DNA of 64,000 nt from Candidatus Saccharimonadales bacterium (lineage in GTDB: Bacteria; Patescibacteriota; Saccharimonadia; Saccharimonadales; UBA4665). The stretch lies in assembly GCA_035545555.1 (NCBI GenBank), contig DASZYD010000013.1:5725-69724 (forward strand), given 5' to 3'. Within the stretch, counting starts at the first letter, position 1; every line of letters begins with the position of its first letter. Below the pieces are notes generated by a model, which did not search any database, was not told where the DNA came from, and saw nothing but the letters and a program-made list of their open reading frames with translations. Shown piece after piece: positions 44,378 through 64,000 of this stretch. The position numbers were made by a program, and so were the translations under genes.

Positions 44378-44395
44378 TCATTCTATTGTAGCGTA

Positions 44396-45619
44396 CTAGA
44401 ACGTACCGGTGGCGATGAGCGATTCGCTGCCAAGATAGACGCCGGCCGGAGTAGTGTTGGCAGCAGTAGCTACGAACTCAAGCGTATTTGCCTCATTGCT
44501 GACGGCACCGGTACCAGAAAAGACTTGACTGCCGAACGTGGATGTCGTACCCGTTGTGTTGTTGCCATCCATGCCATAAAGGCTCGTAGCATTATAGGTT
44601 GCGGGGCAACTATTGGCCGTGTCGCTATAGGCTGCAGCGACGGTCGTATTGGCGCCCTTGTTAACGCACATCCCCCATGCACCAGCCCCTGCCGTAAGCG
44701 TAGTAGCATTACCGGTCAATATATTCCCTATTATAGGACAGGTCGTACCGCCATCCGAGCTAAGTCCTCCATTAGTGCACGTGTTGCCTGCTTTCATGCG
44801 TACTACCCATCCGCCGTTTGCATTCGTTGATAGCTGTGTATTAACACCCGCTATATCAACCTGCGTGGCCGTCAAGACGGTTGCTGAGCCCACGGTGTGG
44901 CCGAGCGTAATCGACGGAGCAGTCAGGGAGCCGCCACAGGTTCCCGTAATGGTTGCCGTAGTTACGCAGAACGTCATGGTTTCCTCGACCGTAGCAGTAA
45001 CGTTGATCAATGCCGCAGTGCTGAGGGCGACACCGCCTGAGTCTACGACACCCGTTGAGCCGCCGGCAGTATAACTGTCAGCATGTGCCTTCGTATCATA
45101 GGTGTACATTCGGGCATAGAAGGAGTGATTGGCTGCCACGTTCGGGTTAGTAACATTCGTTACGCTGAAGGATACGGCGCAAGGCGTCGTAGTGACGTTG
45201 ATGGCTGAAGCGGCTGATAACTCTAGCGTATGCGCGCCCGCAGCAGTACCGGTAGTGACGGTAAAGGTAGAGATGTTACAACCGGCTGTAGTGGACTGAC
45301 CAGTAACCGTTGGCGAAGCGATGGAGAAGCCGCTTGGTGCCGTGCAGGTCGTATCGGCCAATAGTGGGTCGTTATCGCAAAAGTCGACGATGATAGCCTG
45401 GATACTGGGGCTACCGGTAGAAATTGTATTAAACGAAAACTTGTACGTCACACCCGTCGCGCCGGCCGTGGCGTTGCTCATTTCTATGCTTCGAGACGTG
45501 ACCTGTGCAGCAGTAGCCGTCCCGTTCAAGACAAGCGGTACGCCCGCCGCCAGGGCCAATATAACTGCCGCCACTACTGCATAGAGGTTGCGCGAAAGCC
45601 CCTGCATGCGTTTTTTCAT
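44396..45619 (-). CDS. secreted beta-rich surface protein, paralogue family member B (407 aa)
   Basis: Has a signal peptide. The N-module is VTYKFSFNT...IIVDFCDNDPLLADTTCTAPSGF and the C-module is EETMTFCVT...TPAGVYLGSESLIATGTF-COOH. An AT-rich putative promoter region lies at 45620-45737. Confidence 0.65.
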   Translation of the reverse strand: MKKRMQGLSRNLYAVVAAVILALAAGVPLVLNGTATAAQVTSRSIEMSNATAGATGVTYKFSFNTISTGSPSIQAIIVDFCDNDPLLADTTCTAPSGFSIASPTVTGQSTTAGCNISTFTVTTGTAAGAHTLELSAASAINVTTTPCAVSFSVTNVTNPNVAANHSFYARMYTYDTKAHADSYTAGGSTGVVDSGGVALSTAALINVTATVEETMTFCVTTATITGTCGGSLTAPSITLGHTVGSATVLTATQVDIAGVNTQLSTNANGGWVVRMKAGNTCTNGGLSSDGGTTCPIIGNILTGNATTLTAGAGAWGMCVNKGANTTVAAAYSDTANSCPATYNATSLYGMDGNNTTGTTSTFGSQVFSGTGAVSNEANTLEFVATAANTTPAGVYLGSESLIATGTF

Positions 45620-45737
45620 ACTTTTTGCTATCCTTCTAGTTTTTGTATGTTCAAAGGTATCGCTCAGATCTTAGCATGTTAACCTGGAGCCTTGCAATAA
45701 AGCGTAAGGACTTATCCACAAGAATCTTAACAGAGAA

Positions 45738-48557
45738 TTAAAACGTGCCGGTCGCCACGAGAGAGTAGGCCCCAATATAGATCCCGGCTGGGGTGGTGGA
45801 TGAGGCGCTGGCGGCGAAGGTCACTATGTCGTTCTCGTTGTCTAGCGCGCCGCTGCTGGTAAAGACCGGGCTGCCGTATGCGCTTCTGACGCCTGTGGCT
45901 GTAGCATCGTCCAGGCCGTAGGCAGTACCGCTGCCGCAACTGGCGCCATTGTACGGTGCCTGCACGGTAATGCTGCCGCTGCCGGCCTGCACGCATACGC
46001 CGACAGCCGCCGTCCCGGCCGACAGCGTCGTCGCGCTACAGCTACCGCCACAGGATGTGTTGATGGCCGGGACGCCGCACGAGCTCCCGCCGTTGCTGCT
46101 CAGGCCGCCACAGCTGGCGCCGACGCGCACCATACGAACGGTCACGCCGCTCCCCGCGTTGGTCGATGTTTGCGTATAGGCGTCGGCCGTATCGACACTG
46201 CTGCTGTTGAGCACCGGCGGCGAGCCGTGCCCAAGCGTCAGGCTGGCCGGCGACAGACCGGTGCAGTTGGCGCTGATACTGCCGCCCGATACGCAAAACG
46301 TAATCGCCTCCGGCACAACAAAGGTCAGAGCGATCCCGTCGCCGGTGGAGAGGGCCATACCGCCATGATCGACCGAATCCGCCAGGTTGCCCGAGCGGGT
46401 TGTACCCGAAACGGTGTACTCGCCGGTCATATTGCCAGCGGTGTTGAAGGTGATGACACGCGCATAAAACGAGTGGTTGGCCGCCGCCGGGTTTGTCGCC
46501 GTGGTGATAGTGAAATCGATGGGCGTGCCGGTCGAAACTGTCTGTGGCGTCGCGTTGGACAATTCCAGTACCTGTGACTTTCCGGCTGCCGCCCCACCTT
46601 GCACCCCGGCTGCTGTCCAGCCGCTGCCCATGCCGCCGTTTACCGTCAGGCTCGGGCTCGCGCCGCCCCAGTCGAAGCTGGCCGGATAGGTGCAGGCAGC
46701 GTCGTTGAAAACGGGGTCATTGTCGCACATATCGACGACGATACCGCCGATGGGGGTGTTGATGGTGGGCGTAAAGACCACTTCGTAGCTGACGTTTGCC
46801 GCGCCAGGTGTCGAGGTGGTCATAGTCACACTGCGGCCCGTCGCTTGCGCATGATACTCGGGGATCAACACGACCGTGCCGTTCCCGGCCGCCGCACCCA
46901 AGTGGTTCGTCCCGGCTAGGGCAGCATGTGCCGCATCAAGCGTATTCCCGGTCCACGAGTTGGTGAGGTAGCGTATAGCAATCCGGCCGCCGCCGCCAGC
47001 TGCGCCGCCACAACCGGTAGCGCCGTTACCGCCGTTGGCGCTCATCGATCCGGATCCGGTGAACGTGTTCACATCAAGATATAGGCTGCCGCCCGAGCCA
47101 GCTGACGCGTTACATCCGCTGGCATTCGTCCCGTTGGCTGTCAGTGAGCCGTTAACGGTAAGCGTTCCATTCACCACCAACTTGATAGCACCGCCGCCGG
47201 CCGTGCCGGGGCCATTACTGTCGGAACCGCCGCCCGATCCAAGATCAAGTGGCGAAGAAGCCGACCCATAGGTGCTGCTGTTGCCGTTACCTCCGATGCC
47301 ACCATATGCACCACCTTTGGAGGTATTAACACCACCAGCCCCGCCGCCGGGGCCGACACCGTTAATCGACGTCGTTGTGCCGCCCGGATAGCCGAGCCCG
47401 TCGGCCGATATCGCGCTCGTCGCCGGCACCGTCACGTTGCCCCCAACAGTGATGGTTACCCCTGTGCCGTTTGTACTCGTCGTATTCGAGCCGCCAGCCG
47501 ATAGTGTTACTCCGGAAGCCAACGTTAGCGCATCGCTCACCGTCAATGTAAAAGCTGCTGCGCTGGCTGAAGAGAACGTCACATTCGCATTGACTGTCAC
47601 ATCGTGATACGAGAATGCCGTTTCGTCAGTCGAACGCCATGTGCCGTTGATTGCCGGAATAGTCAGATCATTCGTTCCCGTGCGCAGGATATACGCCGTA
47701 CCGTAGCCGGCAGCCGTACCGTTATGGGTAGCGCCCGGCGCAGCCGAGACAGTACCGCTAAATGTTGGCGCGTTCGTTGAGTTGAGCGAAATACGGCCGC
47801 CACCACCCGCTGCGCCGCCACAACCGGTAGCGCCGTTACCGCCAGCCACCGTAACGGTACCCGCGCCAGCGAGCGTACCGGCTATTGCCCAAATGCTGCC
47901 GCCTGAGCCGCCGGCGACGTTACATCCTGATGGTGAGCCGCCGGCGGCTGTTACAGTGCCGCTTACCGTAAGGGTACCCGAAGTGACAAGCTTAATCGCA
48001 CCGCCGCCGTTACCGGCCGGGTTGCCGTTATTGTCATAACCGCCGCCGCTTCCCATATTGGTCGGGGAGAAAATAGACCCGTAGACGGCGCCACTGCCGG
48101 CATGGCCCGCCGGGTTGCCGCCAAAACCGCCATAGCCGGCGCCGCCCGCATTATTCGTGCCGCTCCAGCCAGCACCCGGCCCTTCAGCTGTCGGCGTGCC
48201 CGAGGACCCGCCGCGGTAGCCCTTGGCATCCGCCGTCAGCGTACCGACAATACTTATCGATGTTGCGTCAATCTCCACACTGCCGTAACTGGAGCCATTA
48301 TACGCCTGTACGGTCGCCGTCTCGCCCGTGCCGATGGTTAGAGTGCCGACATTCGTATGCACGCCGGCGATGCCGCCGGGACAATCGGTGGCCGGGTCCC
48401 AGCTGGCGCCGCCATGGTCACCGCCGTTGAGACAGGTATACGAGGCACCCGCCCGGCGCTGATACAGCACCAGCGCGCCGGCCACGACCAGCACTGCCAC
48501 GACCGACAGCGCTACTACACGTATAACTCTCACCCTACGCATAAGCATTAGCTTCAA
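45738..48557 (-). CDS. large secreted surface protein: duplicated Gly-rich beta-helix-like module + paralogue family C-terminal part (939 aa)
   Basis: N-terminal TM or signal segment, two ~155-aa Gly-rich modules 270 aa apart, then VSYEVVFTPT...IVVDMCDNDPVFNDAACTYPASF ... EAITFCVS ... TPAGIYIGAYSLVATGTF-COOH. Confidence 0.7.
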   Translation of the reverse strand: MKLMLMRRVRVIRVVALSVVAVLVVAGALVLYQRRAGASYTCLNGGDHGGASWDPATDCPGGIAGVHTNVGTLTIGTGETATVQAYNGSSYGSVEIDATSISIVGTLTADAKGYRGGSSGTPTAEGPGAGWSGTNNAGGAGYGGFGGNPAGHAGSGAVYGSIFSPTNMGSGGGYDNNGNPAGNGGGAIKLVTSGTLTVSGTVTAAGGSPSGCNVAGGSGGSIWAIAGTLAGAGTVTVAGGNGATGCGGAAGGGGRISLNSTNAPTFSGTVSAAPGATHNGTAAGYGTAYILRTGTNDLTIPAINGTWRSTDETAFSYHDVTVNANVTFSSASAAAFTLTVSDALTLASGVTLSAGGSNTTSTNGTGVTITVGGNVTVPATSAISADGLGYPGGTTTSINGVGPGGGAGGVNTSKGGAYGGIGGNGNSSTYGSASSPLDLGSGGGSDSNGPGTAGGGAIKLVVNGTLTVNGSLTANGTNASGCNASAGSGGSLYLDVNTFTGSGSMSANGGNGATGCGGAAGGGGRIAIRYLTNSWTGNTLDAAHAALAGTNHLGAAAGNGTVVLIPEYHAQATGRSVTMTTSTPGAANVSYEVVFTPTINTPIGGIVVDMCDNDPVFNDAACTYPASFDWGGASPSLTVNGGMGSGWTAAGVQGGAAAGKSQVLELSNATPQTVSTGTPIDFTITTATNPAAANHSFYARVITFNTAGNMTGEYTVSGTTRSGNLADSVDHGGMALSTGDGIALTFVVPEAITFCVSGGSISANCTGLSPASLTLGHGSPPVLNSSSVDTADAYTQTSTNAGSGVTVRMVRVGASCGGLSSNGGSSCGVPAINTSCGGSCSATTLSAGTAAVGVCVQAGSGSITVQAPYNGASCGSGTAYGLDDATATGVRSAYGSPVFTSSGALDNENDIVTFAASASSTTPAGIYIGAYSLVATGTF
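46968..47435 (-). repeat. intragenic repeat copy 2 (aa ~375-530)
   Basis: The peptide is ...GGGAIKLVVNGTLTVNGSLTANGTNASGCNASAGSGGSLY...GGNGATGCGGAAGGGGRIAI, offset exactly 810 nt from copy 1. Confidence 0.85.
47778..48245 (-). repeat. intragenic repeat copy 1 (Gly-rich module, aa ~105-260 of the 939-aa protein)
   Basis: The peptide ...GGGAIKLVTSGTLTVSGTVTAAGG.PSGCNVAGGSGGSIW...GGNGATGCGGAAGGGGRISL parallels copy 2. An exact 34-nt match is found at 47810-47843 and 47000-47033. Confidence 0.85.
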
Positions 48558-48600
48558 CTATAGTGAAGCGCCAACCTGCGATCAAGCCGCCGGCCGGACG

Positions 48601-49392
48601 CTAAAAGGTACTGGTCGCCACCAGCACATGGTCCATGGTGTAGGTGCCGCCAGGCGTTACATTGCTGATGTTGATGAGGTATGAAATGGTAAAATCGGTC
48701 TCGCCAGAGCTCTTGGTCGCATGGGCGATCGTATCGCCGTTGTGATATTTAAACTGGCATGCTGTATCATACCCGCTTGCCGCCGCGCCGAAGCTAAACG
48801 TGGCATCGGGCACCTGGACAGGATTGGCGCCCAGGCTGGCAGGCAAACCGCCGCCGCAGCTGCTATTCGCCACCAAGTTGATGCCGAACTGCTCGGTTGA
48901 CGGATTTGAAGGCCCGGCAGACGACATGGCTGTCAGCAGGTGGGCGCCGTTGGCGGGCGGGTCAGCGGCGGTCACTACCTGATAGCCGCTGGCAAGGTAT
49001 GTCTTGACTGAGAAGTGAGCCAGGCCGGTGGCCGGGGTGCCGGGGCTCAATGTGCCAAGGTTAATGTTCGTGCTCGTCACTACAAATGTCAGTGACGGCG
49101 TACGGTCGGTATTGAATCCCGCCTGGGCCTGATAATTCGTGCTGGATGAGTTGCCCACGCCCGTTTCTCCGACCGAGACTTTGGCGCAATAGTTGGTAGA
49201 CTGCTCGGAGCCGCTCTGGCCGGGATCGCAGAGTGCCCCGCCGTTTCCCAGGAAGGCCTCACTTACCCCGTAGCCGCCCGAACAACTCTGCTGACCGGTA
49301 CTGCACGCCGCTGCGCCACCGGCGTCCATGCCGGCCAGCGCCGCGACCATGGCAATTGCCAGCACCAGTTTTATACACAGCTGACGCCTCAT
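48601..49392 (-). CDS. secreted beta-rich surface protein, short paralogue (263 aa)
   Basis: Signal peptide, a Cys-rich N-segment, then LTFVVTSTNINLGTL...QFGINLVAN...GDTIAHAT...FTISYLINI...PGGTYTMDHVLVATSTF-COOH. This matches the C-module of the 355-aa protein. Confidence 0.65.
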   Translation of the reverse strand: MRRQLCIKLVLAIAMVAALAGMDAGGAAACSTGQQSCSGGYGVSEAFLGNGGALCDPGQSGSEQSTNYCAKVSVGETGVGNSSSTNYQAQAGFNTDRTPSLTFVVTSTNINLGTLSPGTPATGLAHFSVKTYLASGYQVVTAADPPANGAHLLTAMSSAGPSNPSTEQFGINLVANSSCGGGLPASLGANPVQVPDATFSFGAAASGYDTACQFKYHNGDTIAHATKSSGETDFTISYLINISNVTPGGTYTMDHVLVATSTF

Positions 49393-49458: not shown

Positions 49459-50520
49459 ATGCTTAAGGTATATGCTCATCAGCTAATCGATGCAGCACTA
49501 ACAGATATGGACGCCGGCAACAATCCCAATTCGGCCGATGACAGCTCACTCGAGGGCTCGACCACCGTCGTAGAGCCCACAGCGGGCAGTCCTGTCGTAC
49601 CCGGTGCACCCGCCGCTGCCCCGGGGCAGCCAGCCGGCGACACGGCTACGCCTCCGACATCGCAACCCAAACGCCGCTTTTCGCTACGGTATCTTTTCCG
49701 TCGATTCAATATCTATTTGCTGGCGTTCATCCTCCTGCTCGTAGTTGCAGGCGTCGTAGGTACTATCTTCTACCTCAAATCGCAGAACGGCACCATCGGC
49801 AGCAATGTCCCCTCGCAGGCGCTGACACAAGACGAGCTGAACCAACTCGCCAACAGTGATGTAAGCGTGGGCGAGCCGCAGCACACCCTGAATGTCCAAA
49901 GCAATGCCGTCTTTGCCGGCAGCGTGCTGATGCGCGGCAACCTGCAGATCGCCGGTACTTTGCAAGTAGGCAATAACTTGGCCATCAACGGCGTGCGCGT
50001 CACCGGCAACAGCACGTTCGACGATGTGCAGATCACCCACTCGCTGTCGCTTACCGGCAACGCGTCAATCCAGGGGCAGCTCAATGTGCAGAGCAATCTG
50101 GGCGTCAATGGCACCGGCACGTTCCAGGGGGCGCTGTCCGCGCCGTCGATCACCGTGAGCGCGCTGCAGCTCAACGGCAACCTGAACCTGACTCACCACA
50201 TTACGGCCGGCGGCGGCACGCCGGCGCGCAGCAACGGCTCAGCACTGGGCGGCGGCGGCACGGCGACTGTCAGCGGGTCTGACACGGCCGGATCAGTCAA
50301 CATCAACACCGGCAGTAGCCCCGGTGTCGGCTGCTTCGTGACGATCACCTTTGCTAGTGCGTTCAACAGCACACCGCATATCGTAATCACGCCGGTCGGC
50401 GCGGCAGCCGCCGGCATCGACTATTACATTACCCGCACTACCACTACCTTCAGTATTTGTACCACCTCTGCCGCACCGGGCGGCACCTCATTCGGCTTCG
50501 ACTACCTCGCGTTCGACTAA
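49459..50520 (+). CDS. N-terminally TM-anchored fibre-like protein with beta-helical repeats and a conserved ~110-aa C-terminal domain
   Basis: Disordered N-terminus, the TM segment IYLLAFILLLVVAGVVGTIFYL, short repeats (NLQIAGTLQVGNNLAINGVRVTGNSTF...LSLTGNASIQGQLNVQSNLGVNGTGTF), and a C-terminal domain shared with the 61380..63443 protein. Confidence 0.65.
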   Translation: MLKVYAHQLIDAALTDMDAGNNPNSADDSSLEGSTTVVEPTAGSPVVPGAPAAAPGQPAGDTATPPTSQPKRRFSLRYLFRRFNIYLLAFILLLVVAGVVGTIFYLKSQNGTIGSNVPSQALTQDELNQLANSDVSVGEPQHTLNVQSNAVFAGSVLMRGNLQIAGTLQVGNNLAINGVRVTGNSTFDDVQITHSLSLTGNASIQGQLNVQSNLGVNGTGTFQGALSAPSITVSALQLNGNLNLTHHITAGGGTPARSNGSALGGGGTATVSGSDTAGSVNINTGSSPGVGCFVTITFASAFNSTPHIVITPVGAAAAGIDYYITRTTTTFSICTTSAAPGGTSFGFDYLAFD

Positions 50521-50574: not shown

Positions 50575-50904
50575 TTACACTTCCAGAAACACGGTGACGA
50601 CATTGCTGTGGACCTGCATCACGCCGCCGGAAATCTTGATGCGAATCTCGCCTTCTTTGGTCTGCAGCACCAAATCGGACGAATTGAGCAGCGTGATGAA
50701 GTTGCGATGCCGCGGCAGAATATCGAACGCGCCGGTGCCGTTCACGCCGGACACACTGACCGCCTCGGCGTCGTAGAAGACCCGGAATGGCGACCAGACT
50801 TTGACATGCAACAGATCGTCAGCTGGTTTGGCAGCCTGCTTTGCGCCGGCCGGTTCGTCAACGGCGACCAACTGGCCCGTGCTGGCGTCGGTGCGCATTG
50901 CCAC
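50575..50904 (-). CDS. F-type ATPase epsilon-like subunit (beta-sandwich domain only)
   Basis: LLHVKVWSPFRVFYDAEAVSVSGVNGTGAFDILPRHRNFITLL..SDLVLQ...GEIRIKISGGVMQVHSNVVTVFLE parallels the AtpC N-domain (L.V.IV.P...F......V..P...G..GILP.H.P......G...I.......V.GGF.EV..N.V.IL). It has no C-terminal helical hairpin. Confidence 0.7.
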   Translation of the reverse strand: MAMRTDASTGQLVAVDEPAGAKQAAKPADDLLHVKVWSPFRVFYDAEAVSVSGVNGTGAFDILPRHRNFITLLNSSDLVLQTKEGEIRIKISGGVMQVHSNVVTVFLEV

Positions 50905-50930
50905 GGCCTAGAGTCTCCTCACACTGCACA

Positions 50931-53091
<2,161 letters not shown>

Positions 53092-53119
<28 letters not shown>

Positions 53120-53245
53120 GAGACAAACCCTTGCAGGGTTTTTCTCATCGGAGCTGGCGGAGTGAATCCGCCTCCCGTCTGCGACGGGACCGCCCTTGCT
53201 CTTTTCCCAAATAACCGGCTACTGATCATTTCCGTACCTCTTGGG
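53092..53245. repeat. exact 20-bp direct repeat (53092-53111 and 53226-53245) bracketing a 114-bp hairpin-rich intergenic insert
   Basis: TCATTTCCGTACCTCTTGGG occurs twice. On the coding strand it contains GGTACGGAAATGA, which is the alpha stop at one copy and the gamma ATG region at the other. The spacer holds three stem-loops: GAGACAAACCCT/AGGGTTTTTCTC, GGCGGA/TCCGCC and TCCCGTC/GACGGGA. Confidence 0.85.
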
Positions 53246-54653
53246 TGCTGGCGGTGAGGAGTTCGTCGCGTATCTGGTCGAACTGGCTATCGTCGGTCAT
53301 CTTGGCGCCGATACCCAGGGCATTCTTTTTGAGCGTCTTGATGTCGAGCACCTGGCCGTCTTTCAGATTGAGCACGATGTCCAGCATGAGCAGCTGGCTG
53401 TTGACCGAGTAGACTTCATCAGGTGCCTGGTTGAAGAGTTCGATGATGCGCTTGCCGCGCTGCAGGTCCTTTTGCGCTTCCAATGCCAGCTCGGAGCCGA
53501 AATGCGAGAACTCCTGCGCTTGCGCGTAGGCGTTAAGCGTCGAGATCGTCTGCGCCGCCAGCTGTTTCTGGCGCCTGTTTTGGCCCAAGCCGCCGACGCG
53601 CGTGACGCTGAGGCCCGTGCTGACCGCCGGCCGCATCGATTCACGGAACGTCTTCATATCCAAAATCCACTGCCCGTCGGTGATGGACATGATATTGGTC
53701 GGCAGATATCCGGTGATATCACCATCCGATGCCAGCACAATAGGCAGCGCCGTGAGCGTTTTGTGATTCGCCTTGAGCTTGCCGGCCCGTTCAAGCAGGC
53801 TGGAGTGTGCATAGAACATGTCGCCCGGGTACGAATCCCGGCCCGGCGCGCTGCCCGTGAGGAGCGCGATCTCTCGGTAGGTGTAGGCGTGACTGGTGAG
53901 GTCGTCGTAAATGATCATCACATCTTGGTCACACTTCTGCCAGAGATATTCGCCCATGGCGCAGGCCACGTACGGCGCCAGATAGCTTGTCACCAGCGAC
54001 TCAAACGTCGTCGAGACAATGACGATGGCATGCTTCATGGCATCGTTGGCAGCCAGCTTGCTGAGCAGCAGGTCAACATCGCTGCGCCGCTTGGAAATAA
54101 GCACATAGATGGCGACCACATCAGAGTCTTTTTGGTTGAGCGCCAGCTGGTAGGCCAAGGTGCTCTTGCCGGACTTGCTGTCGCCCAGCACGGCCAGGCG
54201 CTGGCCGCGCACCAGCGGGAAGAGCTCATCCAATACCATCAGGCCGGTCACCAGTTGCCTGTCCAGCGCCTCGCGCTCCTGCAGGCCCGGCGCGGCGTTA
54301 AAGACCGGCCACGTCGTATCGGCCGCAATCGGCCCCTTGCCGTCAAGCGGCTCGCCGGTTACCGAAATGACCCGGCCGATAAAATCTTTGCCTACTTTGC
54401 TGACCAGTTCGTGGTGCTGTACCACCGCCATCATGCCGGCGTGCAGGACGTTCACGCCCAGGTGGAGCACCACCACCCGGTCCTCCAGAATGTGGCGGAC
54501 AAAGCCTTTGCTGCCGTCCTCAAACATGACCAGTGCATTGACGTTCACCGGCTGCAAGCCGCGTACCTGCACCATAAATTTATCGACGGTAATCACTTCG
54601 CCGACGGGGCGGCTGCTTTCTACCAGATGGTCGAAGTGCGGATTGTCACTCAT
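53226..54653 (-). CDS. F1 ATPase alpha-like subunit (divergent, 475 aa)
   Basis: Carries P-loop GDSKSGKST (canonical GDRQTGKT), [17 protein letters not shown] (YDDLSKQAVAYR), [39 protein letters not shown] and [16 protein letters not shown] (Arg-finger context). Confidence 0.85.
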
Positions 54654-55209
54654 GCATGGCCTCCGCCGACACCGTAGCCATGGGTGCGGCTGCTGCAGCG
54701 GGGGCGTCGGCCGCGGCAGCTACCAGGCTATCGACCAACAGCTGCCGGTGGTCCTGCAAGTAGCGCCGCAGCGACAGATCAAAGTACTGGTTAGTGGTCT
54801 GTACCGTGCAGCCGGCCGCAATGCTGGGCTGCAAACCGACACGGATCAATACCGCCGGATGGATAGTTTGGCGGAACCACTGCACGATCTTCTGCAAAAA
54901 GGCCGATGATGGGTCAACCGCAAAACTCATATGTACCACCGGCGCCTGCGCGGTCGTATCTTGCAAAAAAGCTGCCAGCCGGGCGCGCGCAGCCGCGTCA
55001 AGAAGGTTCAGCCCGTTCGCCGCCGCCAGCTCATCGAGCATACGGCTGACTTTGGGCAGCTGCGCCTGCGTGGTGCCTGGGGTCCGCAGCGCCTGCTGGT
55101 GCAAGTAGTCGCTCAGTGCTGCCACCTCGCGCTTGAGGCGCGATACATCAGCCGGGGAGGTCACCAGCAACGGTAGCGTCAGAGTGCCGGGGATGGTCGT
55201 ATGTTCCAT
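54646..55209 (-). CDS. F-type ATPase delta/OSCP-like subunit (only the C-terminal domain recognisable)
   Basis: [22 protein letters not shown]...[32 protein letters not shown] parallels the AtpH C-domain (...VDPSLIGG..V..GD.V.D.S....L). It sits between the b-like and alpha-like genes, overlapping the alpha start. Confidence 0.6.
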
Positions 55210-55212
55210 AGC

Positions 55213-55839
55213 CTACGCTCCGCGGCTGATATCTTCCAATATCGCACGTTTATTCGTCTCAAGTTCGCCAAGAATGTACTCCAGCTGATCGCCCAGATTG
55301 ATCTGGTTGCCGATGGCCGTCATGAGATAATGGTTGACGATTGTCGCGGTGTTGTCGGTAAAGCGCTGGATGATCTGCGCCTTCTCGGCTGCAATCTGCT
55401 CCTGCACCTGTTTGCTCAGCTGGGCGCGCTGTTCGTCGATGGCCTGGTTCGTCTTCTGGATGGAGTCGATGGCGAGCTGCTTGGCGTCCATGATCGACTG
55501 CTCATACTTGGCAAACTCTTCCTGCAGCTTCTTGGTGATCTCCGCCTTCATGTACTCGTTCAGCTGGCTGGTCGTCAGGCGCAGGTCCTGCTGCAGAAAC
55601 ATCGCGTTCTCACCGATGATCTTCTCGAAGTGCAGGCGGCCGCGGTTGCGCAGCTCTTCGCGGAACTCGGCATTGAAGATGTGTTCGACGTCTTCCTCGG
55701 CTGCTTTGCTATAGTCGGCAACGGCTTTCTTGGCCGGGCGGACGCCGGCGGCGCTTCCCAGACGCACCGCCACCCAGACGAACGCCAGCCCTGCGGCCCC
55801 CAAGATGCCGAGCATTCCGCCGAGCCACCAAATCGTCAT
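55213..55839 (-). CDS. F-type ATPase b-like peripheral stalk subunit
   Basis: One N-terminal TM helix (WWLGGMLGILGAAGLAFVWVAV), then ~170 aa of heptad-like charged helix. Called from position and architecture, not sequence identity. Confidence 0.6.
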   Translation of the reverse strand: MTIWWLGGMLGILGAAGLAFVWVAVRLGSAAGVRPAKKAVADYSKAAEEDVEHIFNAEFREELRNRGRLHFEKIIGENAMFLQQDLRLTTSQLNEYMKAEITKKLQEEFAKYEQSIMDAKQLAIDSIQKTNQAIDEQRAQLSKQVQEQIAAEKAQIIQRFTDNTATIVNHYLMTAIGNQINLGDQLEYILGELETNKRAILEDISRGA

Positions 55840-55867: not shown

Positions 55868-56713
55868 TTATAACCTTAGTAACAAATATACCGCAAACAG
55901 ACCAATGATTAAAATGGTCACACTGGTAAGGATGATCTGGACCAGCCCGCGCACGATTGACTGCTTGGCAAGCGGGTTACGGCCGATCGAGATAATACTG
56001 CCGCGCACCCCGCTGTACAGCACACCGCCGGCGATGAGCGCGGTAATGGCCAGCACCGCCAGGCTCAGCCAAACGCGCGGTGCGCTAACCGGTTTAGCGG
56101 CGATGGAGTTGCCCGCCACCTGCAGAAAGCCGGGCAGATTGCCGGTGCCATGGCCCAGGTTCGGGTTGCCCGCCACGTTCAGATCGACCGGAATACTGCC
56201 GATGGCTACCGTCTGTTTGCCGCTGCCCGTTTGCAGCGTCGCCGTGCTCACGGTATTGCCGGCGCCGGTAAACGCAACCGCGGCTTTGCCCAGCACGATG
56301 ATCTGGCTGTTGTCGGCTTTCATGCCGACACCATTGAGCGCGGAAATGGTAATGTAATCGCCAACGCTGATAGCCCCGTTCTGGTTGCTCACCAGCACGC
56401 TGTAGCGGCCGGAGGTAGCTACATAGACCTGAGCCGTATCACCGTTGCCTGTCAGCGATAGTGGCGCGTCACTGGCCGGGATGGACACGCCGAGCATTGC
56501 GGTGTCACGGTCGTTCGTCAGCGGTATGACCTTGGTCGTATCGTGCGGATCGAGCCCTACGATCATCCCCTGCCGAATCGCCGTCCCCGCATCATAGGCC
56601 GTCACGACCGGTGACCCGCTGGTCGTCGCACTGGCAGCCACAGCCACACCGGCCGCCCCCACCGGTAAAAGGAGTACGGCAAACGCGAGTACGATACGGC
56701 GAAGCGTAAACAT
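55868..56713 (-). CDS. secreted ~200-aa beta-rich domain fused to a c-subunit-like TM hairpin (occupies the atpE slot)
   Basis: The signal peptide (LLLPVGAAGVAVAAS) is followed by a soluble domain and a C-terminal hairpin, WLSLAVLAITALIAGGVLYSGVRGSIISIGRNPLAKQSIVRGLVQIILTSVTILIIGLFAVYLLLRL. The hairpin has a GRNP loop (canonical c subunits: A-R-Q/N-P) and 34 residues from the loop Pro to the C-terminus, the same as in Bacillus-type c subunits. Neither helix contains Asp or Glu. Confidence 0.6.
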   Translation of the reverse strand: MFTLRRIVLAFAVLLLPVGAAGVAVAASATTSGSPVVTAYDAGTAIRQGMIVGLDPHDTTKVIPLTNDRDTAMLGVSIPASDAPLSLTGNGDTAQVYVATSGRYSVLVSNQNGAISVGDYITISALNGVGMKADNSQIIVLGKAAVAFTGAGNTVSTATLQTGSGKQTVAIGSIPVDLNVAGNPNLGHGTGNLPGFLQVAGNSIAAKPVSAPRVWLSLAVLAITALIAGGVLYSGVRGSIISIGRNPLAKQSIVRGLVQIILTSVTILIIGLFAVYLLLRL

Positions 56714-56742: not shown

Positions 56743-57879
56743 CTAGGCAATGAGGCCGGCGAGCGCTTCGACGGTTCGTCGGATATCCGGCTCGGCCGTA
56801 CCACGACCCATGGTAAACCGCAGCGATGATTGTGCGGCAGCATCGCTCAGGCCCATGGCGCGCAGTACATGCGAGGGTTCTTCGTCGCTCGCCGCACAGG
56901 CCGATCCGGCAGCCGCCATGATGCCCGCTTCGTCCAGCGCCATCAGCAGCCGCTCGTTATCCTGCCCGGCCAGCGTGACATGCACATTATTCGGGAGGCG
57001 ATGGCGCCGCGAACCGTTGATGCTCGCGCCCGGCAGTTGCTCCAGCAGCTCAAAAAAGAGTGCTTGCAGCGTGCGGAGCCGGCCGGCCTCGGCAGCGCGC
57101 ATATCCTGCGCAATCTCTAGCGCTTTACAAAAGCCGATGATACCCGGCACATTCTCCGTACCGCTGCGCAGCCCCCGCTCCTGCCCACCACCATACACCA
57201 GCGGTTTGAGCGCTACGCCGGTTCGTGCCCAGAGCGCGCCTGTCTGTTTAGGCCCATAGATTTTGCCCCCATTCAGAGTGAGCAGATCCACGCCAAGCCG
57301 TGAGACATGCAGATCGAGATAATTCGCCGCCTGGGTAGCGTCGCTATGCAGATAGAGCGGTAAGCTGTTACCGCGCCGCCGCCGGCCAGCCAGCACCTGA
57401 CGCACCAGCGCCGCCACCTCGCGCAGCGGCTGAACGGCACCGACTTCGTTGTTGGCATATTGCACGCTCACCAGCACCGTATTGTCATCAATCAGCTTCT
57501 CAAGCGCCGATACGTCCAGCACACCATCGGGACGTACCGGTGCCTCGGCATGTGCGTAGGCGCGGGCCGTTGCCAGGATAGATTCGTGCTCAATGCTGCT
57601 GACGATCATCCGCGCACCCGGAAAAGCCTGCATTACGCCATGGATCGCCAGGTTGTTCGCCTCAGTGCCGCCGGCCGTAAACAAGACGTCGGCCGGTCGG
57701 GCGCCAAGCACACCGGCAACACCCGCCCGCGCCGCTTCTACGTCACGGTGCACCGCTTTGGCCGCCAGATACGTCGCCGAGGGATTGAAGAACTGCTCCC
57801 GAAAGTATGGCTGCATGGCTGCCAGCACACGCTCATCCGGCGGTGTGGCAGCAGCATAGTCAAGATAAATCGTATGCAT
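56743..57879 (-). CDS. cysteine desulfurase (class V aminotransferase, NifS/IscS-like)
   Basis: Carries FTAGGTEANN, HSDATQA, the PLP-Lys context LNGGKIYGPKQTG and the catalytic Cys loop AAGSACAAS. Confidence 0.88.
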   Translation of the reverse strand: MHTIYLDYAAATPPDERVLAAMQPYFREQFFNPSATYLAAKAVHRDVEAARAGVAGVLGARPADVLFTAGGTEANNLAIHGVMQAFPGARMIVSSIEHESILATARAYAHAEAPVRPDGVLDVSALEKLIDDNTVLVSVQYANNEVGAVQPLREVAALVRQVLAGRRRRGNSLPLYLHSDATQAANYLDLHVSRLGVDLLTLNGGKIYGPKQTGALWARTGVALKPLVYGGGQERGLRSGTENVPGIIGFCKALEIAQDMRAAEAGRLRTLQALFFELLEQLPGASINGSRRHRLPNNVHVTLAGQDNERLLMALDEAGIMAAAGSACAASDEEPSHVLRAMGLSDAAAQSSLRFTMGRGTAEPDIRRTVEALAGLIA

Positions 57880-57904
57880 TACTGTCTAGTATACGGCCCT
57901 CAGG

Positions 57905-58282
57905 CTACGCGCCTTGGGCAATGCGTTGCAGCTCGGTACCGACCTTGCGGGAATAAAGTTGGATGGCAGCATAGAAGTTGCGCAATTCTTCATCGCTCAG
58001 CGACTGGTATACGCTGTCGCCCTGCGACTTCACAATGCCGGTTGGCCGCACGTCATAGCGCGTGGTCATCACACGGTGCCTGCCCTGCGCATCGTTCCAT
58101 TCTTCGTGCCAGACCCAGGTGTGCGGATCCAGGCAGAAAAATTCGCGGCGTACCCCTTTCGGTACCGGGCCGAACAGCTCGCCGCCCAGGCGCGCCTCGT
58201 AGTGCAGCAGTGCCCGCTGGATGTCGGCACGGCGGCGGGCCTGCTTCTGCTCACGCGTCCGGTTCAACATGCTACGCAGCAC
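57905..58282 (-). CDS. hypothetical protein (125 aa)
   Basis: An ORF with a plausible basic N-terminus and a Trp-rich core (FFCLDPHTWVWHEEWND). No family recognised. Confidence 0.45.
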   Translation of the reverse strand: MLRSMLNRTREQKQARRRADIQRALLHYEARLGGELFGPVPKGVRREFFCLDPHTWVWHEEWNDAQGRHRVMTTRYDVRPTGIVKSQGDSVYQSLSDEELRNFYAAIQLYSRKVGTELQRIAQGA

Positions 58283-58934
58283 GGTGCACCTCTGGGATAT
58301 CCGATTGCGCCGGCGTCATAGCGAGTGCCGCAACCACGGCCTGCCGGGCCTGCGCCGCGCGGTCAAGCGCAACCGGTGCTTGCTGGATTTCCGGCTGCAC
58401 CGGCGTAGCCGGCTGGGTCATACTTCTTTCATAAGGGATAGGCTGCCTAGCGCTGTCTTCGGCTGCCACTGCAGCAGCGTGTTGCGGAACCGGCTGCTGG
58501 CCGCTCGCCGCCGAGACGGCCGCCCTGGCCTTATCAAGCGAGATGGGCTCCCGGGCGGCTTGGGCAGGATGCTGCTGAGCGACGTTTGGTTGCTCTGGCG
58601 CGCGGAACGGGACGACATTGGCAGGATATACGTCAGTCTGGGCTGCTGGCCGGAAGGCCTCCGGCGCCGCCTCAGGTCGGGCGACAGCAGCAACGCCGAC
58701 ATTGCCAACTCCCTGATATAGCCGGTCGGCAGGCTCTGTCCCGACTACATTGCCAAAGACACGGTCAACGTGCATGCCGTTGGCAGGGTTAGCCGCGTAG
58801 ACCGCTTCTTTACCAGCCCTAAACGCCCGCTCAATCACTCCCCGTCTTTCCTGGGCAAACTGAGTAAGCGTAAGCTTTTCAAAAGACTGCTTTGTCCCAC
58901 CAAGAGATTCTAGTGGTGAATAATCGGGTGACAT
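58272..58934 (-). CDS. hypothetical Ala/Pro/Gln-rich protein (220 aa)
   Basis: A co-directional ORF overlapping the next gene by 11 nt, with a structured N-terminal ~70 aa and a low-complexity remainder. Confidence 0.4.
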   Translation of the reverse strand: MSPDYSPLESLGGTKQSFEKLTLTQFAQERRGVIERAFRAGKEAVYAANPANGMHVDRVFGNVVGTEPADRLYQGVGNVGVAAVARPEAAPEAFRPAAQTDVYPANVVPFRAPEQPNVAQQHPAQAAREPISLDKARAAVSAASGQQPVPQHAAAVAAEDSARQPIPYERSMTQPATPVQPEIQQAPVALDRAAQARQAVVAALAMTPAQSDIPEVHRAA

Positions 58935-61379: not shown

Positions 61380-63443
61380 TCACTGCAGAACGTGGTAGTA
61401 GTAGTCGTACGTCGTGTTCGGAGCGGGAGCGGTGCCGGATGCGATCGTAAAGGTGGTGGTCGTTGCCGTAGCGCCGTACTGCAATGCCGCGCCAGCGGTC
61501 CCCTCCGGCGTGAGCACAACGATGGGCGCGGTGCTAAACGGCGCCGCAAACGTTACCGTAGCAAGCGTACCGGCAGCACACGGGCTGTTACCGGTCGTGA
61601 TGCTCACCGCCCCAGCCGTATCATCGCCGGTGACGCTGACGGTTGCCGTACTGCTACAGTCGGCAGCACTGCCGGAGACTGCCGTCGTCGTTCCGGTGGG
61701 ATTGCCTGTAATGATGTGACCATCGACTGTCAGCGTACCGGACACGACCAAACTCTTTACGGTCAGCACCATAGTGGTCGTGTCTGCCACTAATAGCGGC
61801 GTGCCGGCAGCATTTTGAACCTGGAATGCTACGGCACTGTCGGTCCGCACCCTCGCCGTACCACTTACATCTAAGGTGTATTGCGGGTTATCGTTTGCGA
61901 TACCTACATTACCGGAAGCAGCAATGGTAAGCCGGTCGGTGAACGGGTCCGCTGTGGTATTCGGAATCTGGTTGATCGGCACGGTGTAGTCGACATAGTC
62001 AGATTGGTTATTGCCGGTGATAAGGGTCCAGGTCATGGTGGTCGTACCAGGCTGGCCGGGCTGGTTTGAGCTCAGGCCGCCCAACGGATCATTCCATGTC
62101 AAGGTCTGACCGGAGCCGGGGGTTGGACCGCCGAAGTGATCACCTACAATAAAATCGGTGATCAATTGCGACGGCTGGCTGGCAATCGTCACCGATGTGG
62201 TAGCGGCAGTACCAATCTGCGTCTGTGCAGTGCCGAATGGCGTCGACTGGTCGACGTTATAAAAGCTGGCGGCGTCAAATGTGAAGAAGTCTGCCCCTGT
62301 CAACGTTACGGCCAGCGTATTGCTGCCTGTCGGCGGCGCCAGCATATACCACACCTCGGCATCGCAACCGCTGGGGAAGACAGCTGTCGGACAACTCGCC
62401 GCATGCAGCAGCGTCAGCGGCGTACCGTTATACGTCACTGAGGCGACGCTATGCGTGTTCCCCAGACTCACCTGCACCATCAATAGACGGTTCAGGTTTG
62501 AGCCGACAACAAGCGTCGTTGAGGCACTGAGGCTCGGACTAAACGGCGAGCCGCCACTGGCCGTAGAATCAACCGTCACCGGCGTCTGTTGCGCCGCCGC
62601 GGTACGGAAAACGATATTGCCCGATCCGCCGGCACCTGTGCCGTTCGAGGCGTCAATATGTATGTCACTGCCGGTTACATTGTTGCCGCTGGCCGCGCCG
62701 CCACGCAGCGTCATCAGGCTCGTCGTGCCATCATTGCCCAACACGACAGCCGTGTTGACCGTGTCAGCCGTTAAAAGGTTCACGCCGCTGGCGTTTTGTA
62801 CTTGTAGCGCCGCCGTACTGTTCGCTTTTACGAGTGCCGTACCGGCTGCAAGAGTATCAGCGGTGAGATTTGTCGCCGTGCCGGTGCCCGAAATGGTGAA
62901 ATTACCAGCGTCAGCCGTGCCTGGCGTACTCGCCTGTAAATGCACAAAAGAGCCGCCAGGCGTGGTCGTGCCGCCGCCGGTTGTCGTAAAGACATTGTTC
63001 GTGATAAACGTATTACCGCCGCCCTGCACAAGATTGACGAATTTCGTGCCGTCGTAGTAGCGGAGCTGGCCTGCGGTTGCATCAACGTAGAGCTCGCCGG
63101 CTACCGGCGAAGCCGGTTCCTCCCCGGGAAGGAGGATAAGGCCGTCACTAACATATGCCTGGCCGTGTACGTTCAGCCGGCCCACGCCTGTCGCCGGCGG
63201 CGCACTGGTAAGTTCCGGGAGCTCAGCTGATGGTATTGCCGACGCGCGATACTGCGCAACGTCGAAGCCCGTCAGCGTCGTTTGGCCGTGGCCGCCGAAC
63301 ATCCGGCTGACCCACAGCACAGCAAGGACCGCTAGGGCAACCAGCAGGACAACGAGCCCAATCGCCCACATCCACCGCGGCATAGGGCGCGGCGGCTGTG
63401 CTGCTGGGCTGGGATACCGCGAAACGATATTATTGGGACCCAT
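61380..63443 (-). CDS. N-terminally TM-anchored tail-fibre-like surface protein (688 aa) with conserved C-terminal domain
   Basis: The start is set at the ATG at 63443, after a GGAG RBS; the track start at 63557 would overlap the upstream gene. The TM segment is WAIGLVVLLVALAVLAVLWV. Motifs typical of phage tail-fibre-like proteins are present (GNVGIANDNPQYTLDVSGTARV; AFQVQNAAGTPLLVADT; ALQVQNASGVNLLTADT). The C-terminal ~115 aa are homologous to the C-terminus of 49459..50520. Confidence 0.7.
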   Translation of the reverse strand: MGPNNIVSRYPSPAAQPPRPMPRWMWAIGLVVLLVALAVLAVLWVSRMFGGHGQTTLTGFDVAQYRASAIPSAELPELTSAPPATGVGRLNVHGQAYVSDGLILLPGEEPASPVAGELYVDATAGQLRYYDGTKFVNLVQGGGNTFITNNVFTTTGGGTTTPGGSFVHLQASTPGTADAGNFTISGTGTATNLTADTLAAGTALVKANSTAALQVQNASGVNLLTADTVNTAVVLGNDGTTSLMTLRGGAASGNNVTGSDIHIDASNGTGAGGSGNIVFRTAAAQQTPVTVDSTASGGSPFSPSLSASTTLVVGSNLNRLLMVQVSLGNTHSVASVTYNGTPLTLLHAASCPTAVFPSGCDAEVWYMLAPPTGSNTLAVTLTGADFFTFDAASFYNVDQSTPFGTAQTQIGTAATTSVTIASQPSQLITDFIVGDHFGGPTPGSGQTLTWNDPLGGLSSNQPGQPGTTTMTWTLITGNNQSDYVDYTVPINQIPNTTADPFTDRLTIAASGNVGIANDNPQYTLDVSGTARVRTDSAVAFQVQNAAGTPLLVADTTTMVLTVKSLVVSGTLTVDGHIITGNPTGTTTAVSGSAADCSSTATVSVTGDDTAGAVSITTGNSPCAAGTLATVTFAAPFSTAPIVVLTPEGTAGAALQYGATATTTTFTIASGTAPAPNTTYDYYYHVLQ

Positions 63444-63516
63444 GTTTGTTTCTCCACAGCGCTCACCCGGTGGCTGCCGCTTATGCTGTTCGTGAATATT
63501 ATATACATATGGACCG

Positions 63517-64000
63517 TTAGCGCAATGTAAAGTACAGCACAACAGCCGCAACCGCAACGATAAGGCAGGCAGTTGCCATCACCTGCGTCAGCGTACGCAG
63601 GATTGAGCGGCGTGCCAGGGGGTTCCGGCCCATTGCAACAATACTGGCATGGATAGCGCCATAGATCAGGGCTATGAGCGCACCGACCGACACAACCGCG
63701 ATAACAAAGCTCAGCACGGCGCGCAACGCCGAAACCTGGTGGCCGGCAACAACTGCCGCGACCGACTGTAGGTTGGCGATCACGCCAGATTGTTCGGACG
63801 CCGCTATGCCCGATCCGACCAGAATCGCTACCGGGATTGAGCCGACATGTACGGTCTGTGTCCCGCCGGCAACCTTTGGCACCTGATAGGTTACCGGCGA
63901 CGTGCCCGCAGAGAAGTCCGCTTCAGCAGTACCGATTGTGTACAAACCAACCGCCGCCTTCATCCCAATGCCCGCTATCGGCGAGACCGATATACGATCG
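63517..64000 (-). CDS. second paralogue of the secreted-domain + c-subunit-like hairpin protein (5' end outside window)
   Basis: The frame stays open to the window edge (...DRISVSPIAGIGMKAAVGLYTIGTA, compare GDYITISALNGVGMKADNSQIIVLGKA in 55868..56713). It shares GSIPV..LV and the C-terminal hairpin ...ALIALIYGAIHASIVAMGRNPLARRSILRTLTQVMATACLIVAVAAVVLYFTLR. Confidence 0.65.
   Translation of the reverse strand, partial: DRISVSPIAGIGMKAAVGLYTIGTAEADFSAGTSPVTYQVPKVAGGTQTVHVGSIPVAILVGSGIAASEQSGVIANLQSVAAVVAGHQVSALRAVLSFVIAVVSVGALIALIYGAIHASIVAMGRNPLARRSILRTLTQVMATACLIVAVAAVVLYFTLR

Follow-up and report, generated by a model that had tools for sequence, protein, structure and literature searches.

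Of all members of the candidate phyla radiation, Saccharibacteria have been studied best, and the 'F-type ATP synthase' encoded in their genomes is routinely scored as a bioenergetic marker. In the c subunit of such enzymes the ion-binding Asp or Glu sits midway along helix 2, some 20 residues past the Arg of the interhelical loop. Relatives of the F1 head also work elsewhere: F1-like ATPases serve protein export in flagellar and type III secretion systems (T3SS), and in Mycoplasma they are found in the gliding motor of M. mobile (MMOB1660/1670), together with the giant transmembrane (TM)-anchored leg protein Gli349, and as the type 2/3 'F1-like X0' systems (MSC_0618/0619), where ATP hydrolysis is proposed to move surface structures. 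Here we describe two genes, par1 and par2, from a 64,000-nucleotide (nt) stretch of DNA (the window; contig DASZYD010000013.1, positions 5,725 to 69,724 of the forward strand) that comes from a high-GC (59%) Candidatus Saccharimonadales metagenome-assembled genome (MAG; GCA_035545555.1). Both belong to a family that we name PAR, in which a hairpin resembling that of c subunits follows a predicted extracellular β-domain. The first gene heads an operon of F1-like ATPase genes, while the second, whose 3′ part lies at the window edge (Table 1), directly precedes a gene for a membrane-anchored, fibre-like protein, an arrangement that recurs in related genomes.

The open reading frame (ORF) at the window edge is a genuine second copy of the PAR protein. 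The frame (63517..63999, reverse strand) is open to the edge and encodes 160 residues before a TAA stop at 63519-63517, made up of the end of the β ectodomain, a linker helix and a two-helix TM hairpin. BLASTP aligns it with the 281-residue par1 product at 35% identity over 164 columns (E = 1e-22), and the match takes in the end of the soluble domain, the linker and the terminal hairpin, as the initial annotation had claimed for soluble domain and hairpin. The aligned motifs of par2 and par1, respectively, include ISVSPIAGIGMKA and ITISALNGVGMKA, GSIPVAILV and GSIPVDLNV, and MGRNPLARRSILR and IGRNPLAKQSIVR. Within the ectodomain motif, GxGMKA is nearly invariant across the family, and helix 1 of par2 has small residues at i+4 spacing (G..A..S..A.G). 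Helix 2 of either copy contains no Asp or Glu, so that the acidic residue reported missing from par2 is indeed absent from its translation. The 5′ end of par2 is supplied only by a near-identical strain contig, L160 (∼98% nt identity), whose full-length counterpart P0121 (L160 403..1233) is 276 residues long with a signal-peptide-like N-terminus. Extension of the contig, proposed as a way to recover the gene and its upstream neighbours, therefore yields the whole gene by way of a strain, and as its neighbour an unrelated NUDIX hydrolase gene (L160 1..375) on the same strand that ends 27 nt before par2 and whose NUDIX box can be read directly. This neighbour does not weaken the PAR-fibre pair, because the upstream genes vary in every locus. 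The loop of the L160 copy reads GRNLLA (Pro to Leu), with two further substitutions in the hairpin; the loop otherwise reads GRNPLA.

The gene downstream of par2 is separated from it by the 73-nt gap with GGAG that had been described at the outset. No terminator-like hairpin was found in this spacer, and the ATG of the fibre gene (63443-63441) lies 8 nt past the GGAG; in the NCBI annotation of the same MAG the protein starts at a later ATG and has 667 residues (P0133). Its first description as a 688-residue TM-anchored protein was right about the single N-terminal TM helix and one residue too long. The protein consists of a short cytoplasmic tail, the TM helix, a juxtamembrane module that we call fibN, Gly/Thr-rich stretches modelled with low confidence, a β-sandwich and a C-terminal domain, fibC. 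As a module, fibN begins with a variable cytoplasmic tail and basic residues, continues with one TM helix and a linker of ∼40 residues, and leads to a conserved core with the consensus LxVNGQLxVxxxLVLxPxxxPxxPxxGQIYYDQxxNxxxYYNGTxFVxL. It is common to all PAR-linked fibres, which range from 600 to 3,102 residues and are very diverse in their remaining sequence.

In the AlphaFold2 (AF2) model of the 687-residue protein (predicted local distance difference test score, pLDDT, 63) the TM helix, a confident β-sandwich (residues ∼290-500) and a moderately confident C-terminal domain can be recognised, and Foldseek found no significant match to it in the PDB (best E 0.011, generic β-sandwiches). Neither Pfam nor NCBIfam models match the protein, and its PHROG matches are confined to two families of unknown function (E of at least 5e-4, ∼40 residues). 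The label 'tail-fibre-like' given to it initially is accordingly unproven, there being neither a tail-fibre family match in Pfam, NCBIfam or PHROG nor a significant fold match; 'fibre-like' is plausible. A collagen triple-helix repeat lies right behind fibN in a relative of 60% identity (P0134), which hints at a trimeric fibre; the monomer model is of low confidence outside two globular domains. A distant fibre relative, P0150, carries Gp34_trimer, the trimerisation domain of T4 Gp34.

To follow the pairing beyond the window, PAR loci were collected from a genome-collection scan (80 loci), a metagenome scan with an alignment of the par2 subfamily (64) and exact-protein look-ups (15), and their ORFs were called and annotated with hidden Markov models (HMMs) for PAR, the window ATPase proteins and the two fibre modules. 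The 159 PAR genes fall into 143 clusters at 90% identity. Eighty-five of these head an operon of b-like, delta, alpha, gamma, beta and epsilon genes (82, plus 3 with a frameshifted PAR or an overlooked b-like gene), 35 are followed directly by a same-strand fibN protein (median gap ∼100 nt, typically ∼50-250 nt), 20 have no downstream sequence available, and three (L071, L111 and L144) fit none of these classes, although two of the three have fibre genes on the opposite side of PAR. By cassette we mean a PAR gene whose immediate downstream neighbour on the same strand encodes a protein with a signal-anchor TM helix and fibN, and par2 of the window has this arrangement (73-nt gap, TM helix at residues 24-45, fibN core at 89-139). 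The genes around PAR-fibN pairs differ from locus to locus, among them ParAB, gyrase, IF2 and transketolase genes, and that for MetRS in the window. The link also holds in the converse direction: the fibre homologues P0140 and P0141, found with the 687-residue protein as query, each have PAR directly upstream, and two distant fibre matches that lack fibN have no upstream PAR gene. All 50 fibN ORFs in 2.05 Mb of loci adjoin PAR, a PAR-linked fibre, or the epsilon gene of a PAR-headed operon, and a fibre gene lies within 1.5 kb of epsilon in 56 of the 59 ATPase-type loci with enough sequence.

Together, the 35 pairs, the adjacency of every fibN ORF and the converse test therefore give strong support, as far as gene-neighbourhood evidence goes, to a functional link between the PAR and fibre families, and that the PAR-fibre cassette is a functional unit can be held with high confidence. 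The link was proposed in the initial annotation, where co-occurrence in related genomes was named as the check, and the 35 of 143 PAR genes that precede a fibN protein amid otherwise unrelated flanks bear it out. Chance adjacency of two abundant hypothetical families might be invoked, both being without Pfam assignment in a genome rich in surface proteins, but it is refuted by the 35 non-redundant same-strand pairs with variable flanks, the complete fibN adjacency and the positive converse test, and is barely conceivable.

Several loci show variants of the cassette. Two fibN genes stand in tandem after one PAR gene in L126 (1232..10140) and L136 (3465..11691), and one fibre gene stands on each side of PAR in L145 (228..15176); one base gene can therefore serve several fibre genes. 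In L082 a fibre-linked PAR gene is divergent from a PAR-ATPase operon ∼700 nt away, and a ∼3,800-residue fibN protein follows epsilon. L071 (1..6334; labelled Verrucomicrobiia, probably mis-binned) has a par1-like gene between two fibC fibres and no ATPase genes, with the usual 263-residue and 939-residue family genes coming next, and looks like a case in which the whole F1-like operon was lost and PAR and fibres were retained. A signal peptidase I gene (Peptidase_S26) is divergent just upstream of the cassette in L086 (9241..9885) and L088 (9227..9883).

Table 1 Features of the window discussed in the text, with coordinates, strand, and basis or remarks.
Feature	Coordinates	Strand	Basis or remarks
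par2, 3′ part (last 160 residues and stop of a ∼276-residue PAR protein)	63517..64000	-	translation, match to par1
IAGIGMKA motif, β ectodomain of par2	63955..63978	-	family alignments, group conservation
Hairpin helix 1 of par2	63631..63726	-	par1 model and alignment
GRNPLA loop between the TM helices of par2	63613..63630	-	alignments, conservation by context group
Hairpin helix 2 of par2	63520..63612	-	translation, group conservation
Intergenic spacer par2/fibre (73 nt)	63444..63516	-	sequence; GGAG at 63455-63452
Fibre-family gene (687 residues)	61380..63443	-	ORF, model, module HMMs
Signal-anchor TM helix of fibre (residues 24-45)	63309..63374	-	
fibN module core (residues 89-139)	63027..63179	-	RLNVHGQAYVSDGLILLPGEEPASPVAGELYVDATAGQLRYYDGTKFVNLV; alignment, HMM matches
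fibC C-terminal domain (residues ∼560-687)	61383..61766	-	common to the convergent 353-residue protein and several other fibres
par1, full-length PAR protein (281 residues), operon head	55868..56713	-	ORF, BLASTP, model
F1-like ATPase genes, whole block	50575..55839	-	
b-like	55213..55839	-	
delta-like	54646..55209	-	
alpha	53226..54653	-	
gamma	52241..53119	-	
beta	50931..52244	-	
epsilon	50575..50904	-	
Convergent TM-anchored protein (353 residues)	49459..50520	+	fibC match, synteny

The PAR protein itself was modelled on par1, the AF2 model being built on 51 homologues with a pLDDT of 84. It shows an N-terminal signal helix, a β domain (residues 37-182), a short helix and a hairpin (211-245/247-280). 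In a Foldseek search of the PDB the β domain matched phage decoration or cement proteins and phi29 head-fibre-base proteins, the best being 8hdt_G (1.4e-4), followed by 9ocb_K (4.3e-4), 9kzj_I, 8pkh, 6qyy, 5wk1 and 1c5e. The best match in BFVD was at 2.7e-8, and 37 matches there had E values up to 1e-3, including DUF2190 and 'preneck appendage barrel'; many of these are long proteins that carry the domain at their N-terminal end. With PF23982 (XM1_gp53_minor_capsid) the PAR relative P0126 passes the cutoff (33.8 bits against 27, E 3.7e-8), the relative P0132 falls below it, and neither window copy matches.

The ectodomain fold is thus shared with lambda gpD, the Pam3/T1 cement and TW1 capsid-stabilising proteins and phi29 gp8.5, a group in which long fibre-like proteins often have this domain as their N-terminal base, and it also occurs inside some Saccharimonadales fibres. 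Such a fold, and the Gp34 domain in the distant fibre relative, would be expected if the cassette were a phage remnant, a decoration or head-fibre-base protein left behind with its fibre gene. PAR, however, is chromosomal and membrane-anchored, in no capsid or phage context (its neighbours being MetRS, TatD, NifS and atp genes); no PAR relative was found in 2.9 million viral contigs and no PHROG model matches, housekeeping synteny is kept across hundreds of species, and the flanks of fibre-linked loci are without phage genes. With the PHROG and viral-contig searches empty we rejected a phage origin, and a remnant of this kind is extremely unlikely.

The fibre proteins of L082 (10912..15243, residues 1145-1276), L071 (3..1253), L155 (1..3411) and L137 (1..1341) contain a domain homologous to the ectodomain of PAR (SGRxxVxVSxxNGxIxxGDxIxxSxxxGxGMKA, with E values from 2e-18 to 2e-10), and in the first two it sits just ahead of fibC. 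Base and fibres therefore have a building block in common.

The hairpin of the par1 model superposes on c subunits with TM-scores of 0.8-0.87 and root-mean-square deviations (rmsd) of 1.2-1.7 Å, most closely on that of Chloroflexus (9itt_I; TM-score 0.87, rmsd 1.2 Å, 66 residues, 23% identity). It has the same length as the hairpin of F-type c subunits, a predicted N-out/C-out topology, an R-N-P loop and small residues in helix 1, and par1 immediately precedes the b, delta, alpha, gamma, beta and epsilon genes. The predicted topology, with the GRNPL loop cytoplasmic, is based on the signal peptide, the ectodomain, the N-out/C-out hairpin and the basic loop placed inside. Unlike c subunits, PAR has a ∼180-residue extracellular domain and a signal peptide at its N-terminus, no significant sequence similarity to them, no mid-membrane Asp or Glu and no accompanying a gene, and its second class pairs with surface fibres. 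With par1, par2, P0121 and other relatives as queries, neither Pfam ATP-synt_C (PF00137) nor an NCBIfam c-subunit model gave a match at E≤0.1-1, and a rough profile, an HMM of 8 c subunits, gave E values of at least 0.2 against PAR. In an hhalign comparison the R-N-P loop of PAR and the R-Q/N-P loop of c subunits fall in register, at a probability of 2.4%. The term 'c-like' used initially is thus apt for the predicted fold, the topology, the in-register loop motif and the operon position, and goes too far where sequence statistics are concerned.

Acidic residues in helix 2 are absent from 71 of 83 ATPase-linked PARs and, where present, lie at +6 or +15 from the loop Gly rather than at the canonical depth. 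Position +15, counted from the Gly of GRNPLA, is Gln in par1, in par2 (63568..63570) and in ∼80% of ATPase-linked PARs, and 20 of 33 fibre-linked PARs have Asp or Glu there. This conserved polar site lies near the end of helix 2 that faces the cytoplasm, at a different depth from the carboxylate of c subunits. Were PAR proteins ordinary ion-translocating c variants with an N-terminal extension and incidental fibre neighbours, the hairpin fold with its R-N-P loop and the first place in an atp-like operon would be accounted for. The absent mid-membrane carboxylate contradicts this, and the lack of a nearby a subunit and of an ATP-synt_C match, the occurrence of par2-type genes outside atp operons and the exclusiveness of the fibre linkage make it very improbable.

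The other window copy, par1, which is 100% identical to the NCBI hypothetical protein VHC98_01305, heads the ATPase-like operon as had been noted, followed by b-like, delta, alpha, gamma, beta and epsilon genes. The operon ends near a convergent gene for a protein with the same C-terminal domain, likewise in agreement with the initial annotation, except that the gap is 54 nt and not 55. This 353-residue protein has a β-helical stalk, which matches Bactofilin weakly and below the Pfam cutoff, and a fibC domain, its last ∼125 residues being 43% identical to those of the 687-residue fibre (E 4e-13), and its gene is syntenic in 53 loci. Gene order in the ATPase-type loci is nearly invariant, MetRS-TatD-NifS-PAR-b-delta-alpha-gamma-beta-epsilon and then the convergent fibre. 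Judged by their model scores, the window alpha, beta and gamma are clearly F1-type yet divergent, since all three fall below the NCBIfam equivalog cutoffs (alpha 377.9 against 484.45 for atpA TIGR00962, beta 449.5 against 462.85 for atpD TIGR01039, gamma 75.6 against 194.45 for TIGR01146).

Neither a subunit a gene nor a canonical c gene was found in the operon or within 10 kb of it in ∼150 PAR-bearing loci, the subunit-a motif RLxGN had 0 matches in the 2.05 Mb, and the NifS-PAR gaps of L019 and L024, checked for both genes, contain unrelated genes only. The F1-like operon and its surroundings showed no c-like gene other than PAR. The operon without a and c recurs in about 85 non-redundant loci, including the low-GC lineage L154.

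Among described systems the Mycoplasma F1-like ATPases offer an analogy, and only an analogy: divergent alpha and beta without a normal Fo, a small host- or wall-associated bacterium and giant surface proteins. The window alpha and beta are, however, nearer true atpA and atpD, and delta, b, gamma and epsilon are retained, alongside a c-like hairpin protein and unrelated surface partners; against the Mycoplasma families NF045863 and NF045858 of the gliding motor and NF045936 and NF045934 of MSC_0619/0618 the window proteins score 311 vs 600, 340 vs 850, 276 vs 520 and 366 vs 570. The FliH-FliI-FliJ export complex, in which an F1-related ATPase serves extracellular filaments, is a conceptual parallel only. 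PAR might on that model be an assembly or export factor, a chaperone or insertion helper for huge type-II proteins, with the ATPase acting like FliH/I/J. The cargo-like partners of 600-3100 residues encoded directly downstream would suit such a role, as would the use of F1-like ATPases for export in flagella and T3SS and the weak matches of the window alpha and beta to FliI/SctN models. These scores are nevertheless far below the FliI/SctN cutoffs, and the T3SS and flagellar export ATPase is a homohexamer without alpha/beta alternation, with an unrelated gate. An ordinary signal-anchor on the fibres fits Sec, the retained delta, b, gamma and epsilon speak for a rotary architecture, a ring of two-helix hairpins gives no obvious protein conduit and a large conserved ectodomain is unexpected in a gate, so that an export role appears quite improbable.

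The PAR family is large. A word-indexed sequence search returned more than 1,100 matches, the genomes representing GTDB species contain 343 matching stretches, and cluster representatives at 50% identity number 689 (E≤1e-30), 2,959 (1e-10) or 10,365 (1e-3). All named members are 'hypothetical' proteins of Saccharimonadales/Saccharibacteria, Pfam, NCBIfam and PHROG models match neither par1 nor par2, and family profiles searched against PDB sequences returned nothing. A division into two clean paralogue clades was considered and rejected: in a neighbour-joining tree, rough, distance-based and without bootstraps, diverse fibre-linked copies are interleaved with some ATPase-linked ones. We found no description of the PAR family, of the PAR-fibre cassette or of a Saccharibacteria ATPase lacking a and c in the open-access full-text literature, and regard the PAR-fibN cassette, whose function we infer, as categorically new as a system.

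As to how the cassette may work, we envisage par2 and the 687-residue gene as encoding a membrane base and a surface fibre. PAR would be exported by way of its signal peptide, displaying the phage-decoration-like β domain outside the cell, while the c-subunit-like hairpin would anchor it in the membrane with the short GRNPL loop towards the cytoplasm. The precedents of c subunits and of trimeric decoration proteins lead us to propose that it oligomerises into a ring or crown, of which the i+4 small residues of helix 1 and the invariance of the loop offer no more than a hint. The fibre, predicted to be anchored as a type-II protein (N-in, C-out) and probably trimeric, could be gripped at its fibN juxtamembrane module by the PAR ectodomains. 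The loops of the putative ring would dock the gamma/epsilon shaft of the F1-like ATPase, and ATP hydrolysis, not ion flow, might then make the surface fibres rotate or undergo some other mechanical change. This model, a PAR ring base that holds the fibre and is coupled to the F1-like ATPase, is the one we favour, tentatively and at slightly less than an even chance.

Coupling is argued chiefly from the loop. GRNPL is at least 90% conserved in ATPase-linked and fibre-linked PARs alike, and in the working model that we favour PAR rings therefore dock the gamma/epsilon subunits of the ATPase; this conservation is the main argument for par2-type copies still meeting the same cytoplasmic partner. 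A passive role would be simpler, with PAR a static anchor, that is a socket or scaffold that places the fibre and perhaps ties it to the cell wall, and the ATPase-linked copy a separate specialisation. Most fibre-linked PARs are indeed distant from ATPase genes and lie amid unrelated housekeeping neighbours, the decoration-protein fold is that of a static lattice binder in phages, and PAR has no ion-binding carboxylate. A conserved, predicted-cytoplasmic GRNPL loop in fibre-linked copies would, however, be superfluous in a purely external scaffold, and the tree mixes ATPase-linked and fibre-linked copies, L082 has both cassette types side by side and fibre genes flank 56 of the 59 ATPase operons. 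We consider a static anchor possible, if on the whole unlikely.

Several points weigh against a PAR ring coupled to the ATPase. The coupling of par2 is indirect, because ATPase genes are usually missing from the vicinity of fibre-linked PAR genes. There is no sequence-level proof of homology between PAR and c subunits in the comparisons with Pfam, PDB profiles and hhalign, and the Foldseek E values for the hairpin are only 0.09-0.5, a result that any helical hairpin may give. For the fibre, the model is of poor quality and gave no significant match by fold. Canonical a and c genes, sought in the loci only, may lie elsewhere in the genomes, and H+-type c subunits are reported in the 'complete' F-type ATP synthase clusters of rhodopsin-bearing Saccharibacteria (PMC9296517).

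The favoured coupled ring can be carried further, to an ATP-driven surface machine of Saccharimonadales in which a divergent F1 head and peripheral stalk would turn or push a c-like ring without subunit a and no longer coupled to ions, whose phage-decoration-like outer crown would grip interchangeable giant fibres. Every additional fibre would then bring its own ring subunit, as par2 does, and the annotated 'ATP synthase' would be a motor for attachment, motility or host manipulation. This fuller version is doubtful. The linkage of PAR with fibres and with the F1-like operon points to a surface machine not yet described. All ATP synthase genes are reported to be dispensable in Southlakia, the one of the Saccharibacteria open to genetic work (PMC10633639). 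If the only c-like component is a hairpin without the carboxylate, fused to a phage-like extracellular domain, and if its family is the obligate partner of giant surface fibres, metabolic reconstructions that treat the PAR operon as an ATP synthase would need review, and the PAR family (∼690 clusters at 50% identity, E≤1e-30) would gain its first functional context. There would also be a testable candidate for the way in which ultrasmall epibionts anchor or actuate large surface proteins, and a rare reuse of a rotary-ATPase part outside ion transport.

Two further features of the window lie outside the cassette. Long antisense ORFs (up to 478 residues) run over real genes, for example at 53241..54677 (+) and 57460..58434 (+); they are an expected artefact of the ∼59% GC content and not genes. 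Past the convergent fibre gene, four consecutive secreted proteins of 355, 407, 939 and 263 residues are encoded at 43310..49392 (-), with no Pfam match and with a common C-terminal strand motif, ...TP(A/G)G.Y....(L/V)(V/I)AT(G/S)TF (CLANF in one). Orthologues of two of them are syntenic past the convergent fibre gene in most loci, and the four may be pilin-like or donor-strand subunits.

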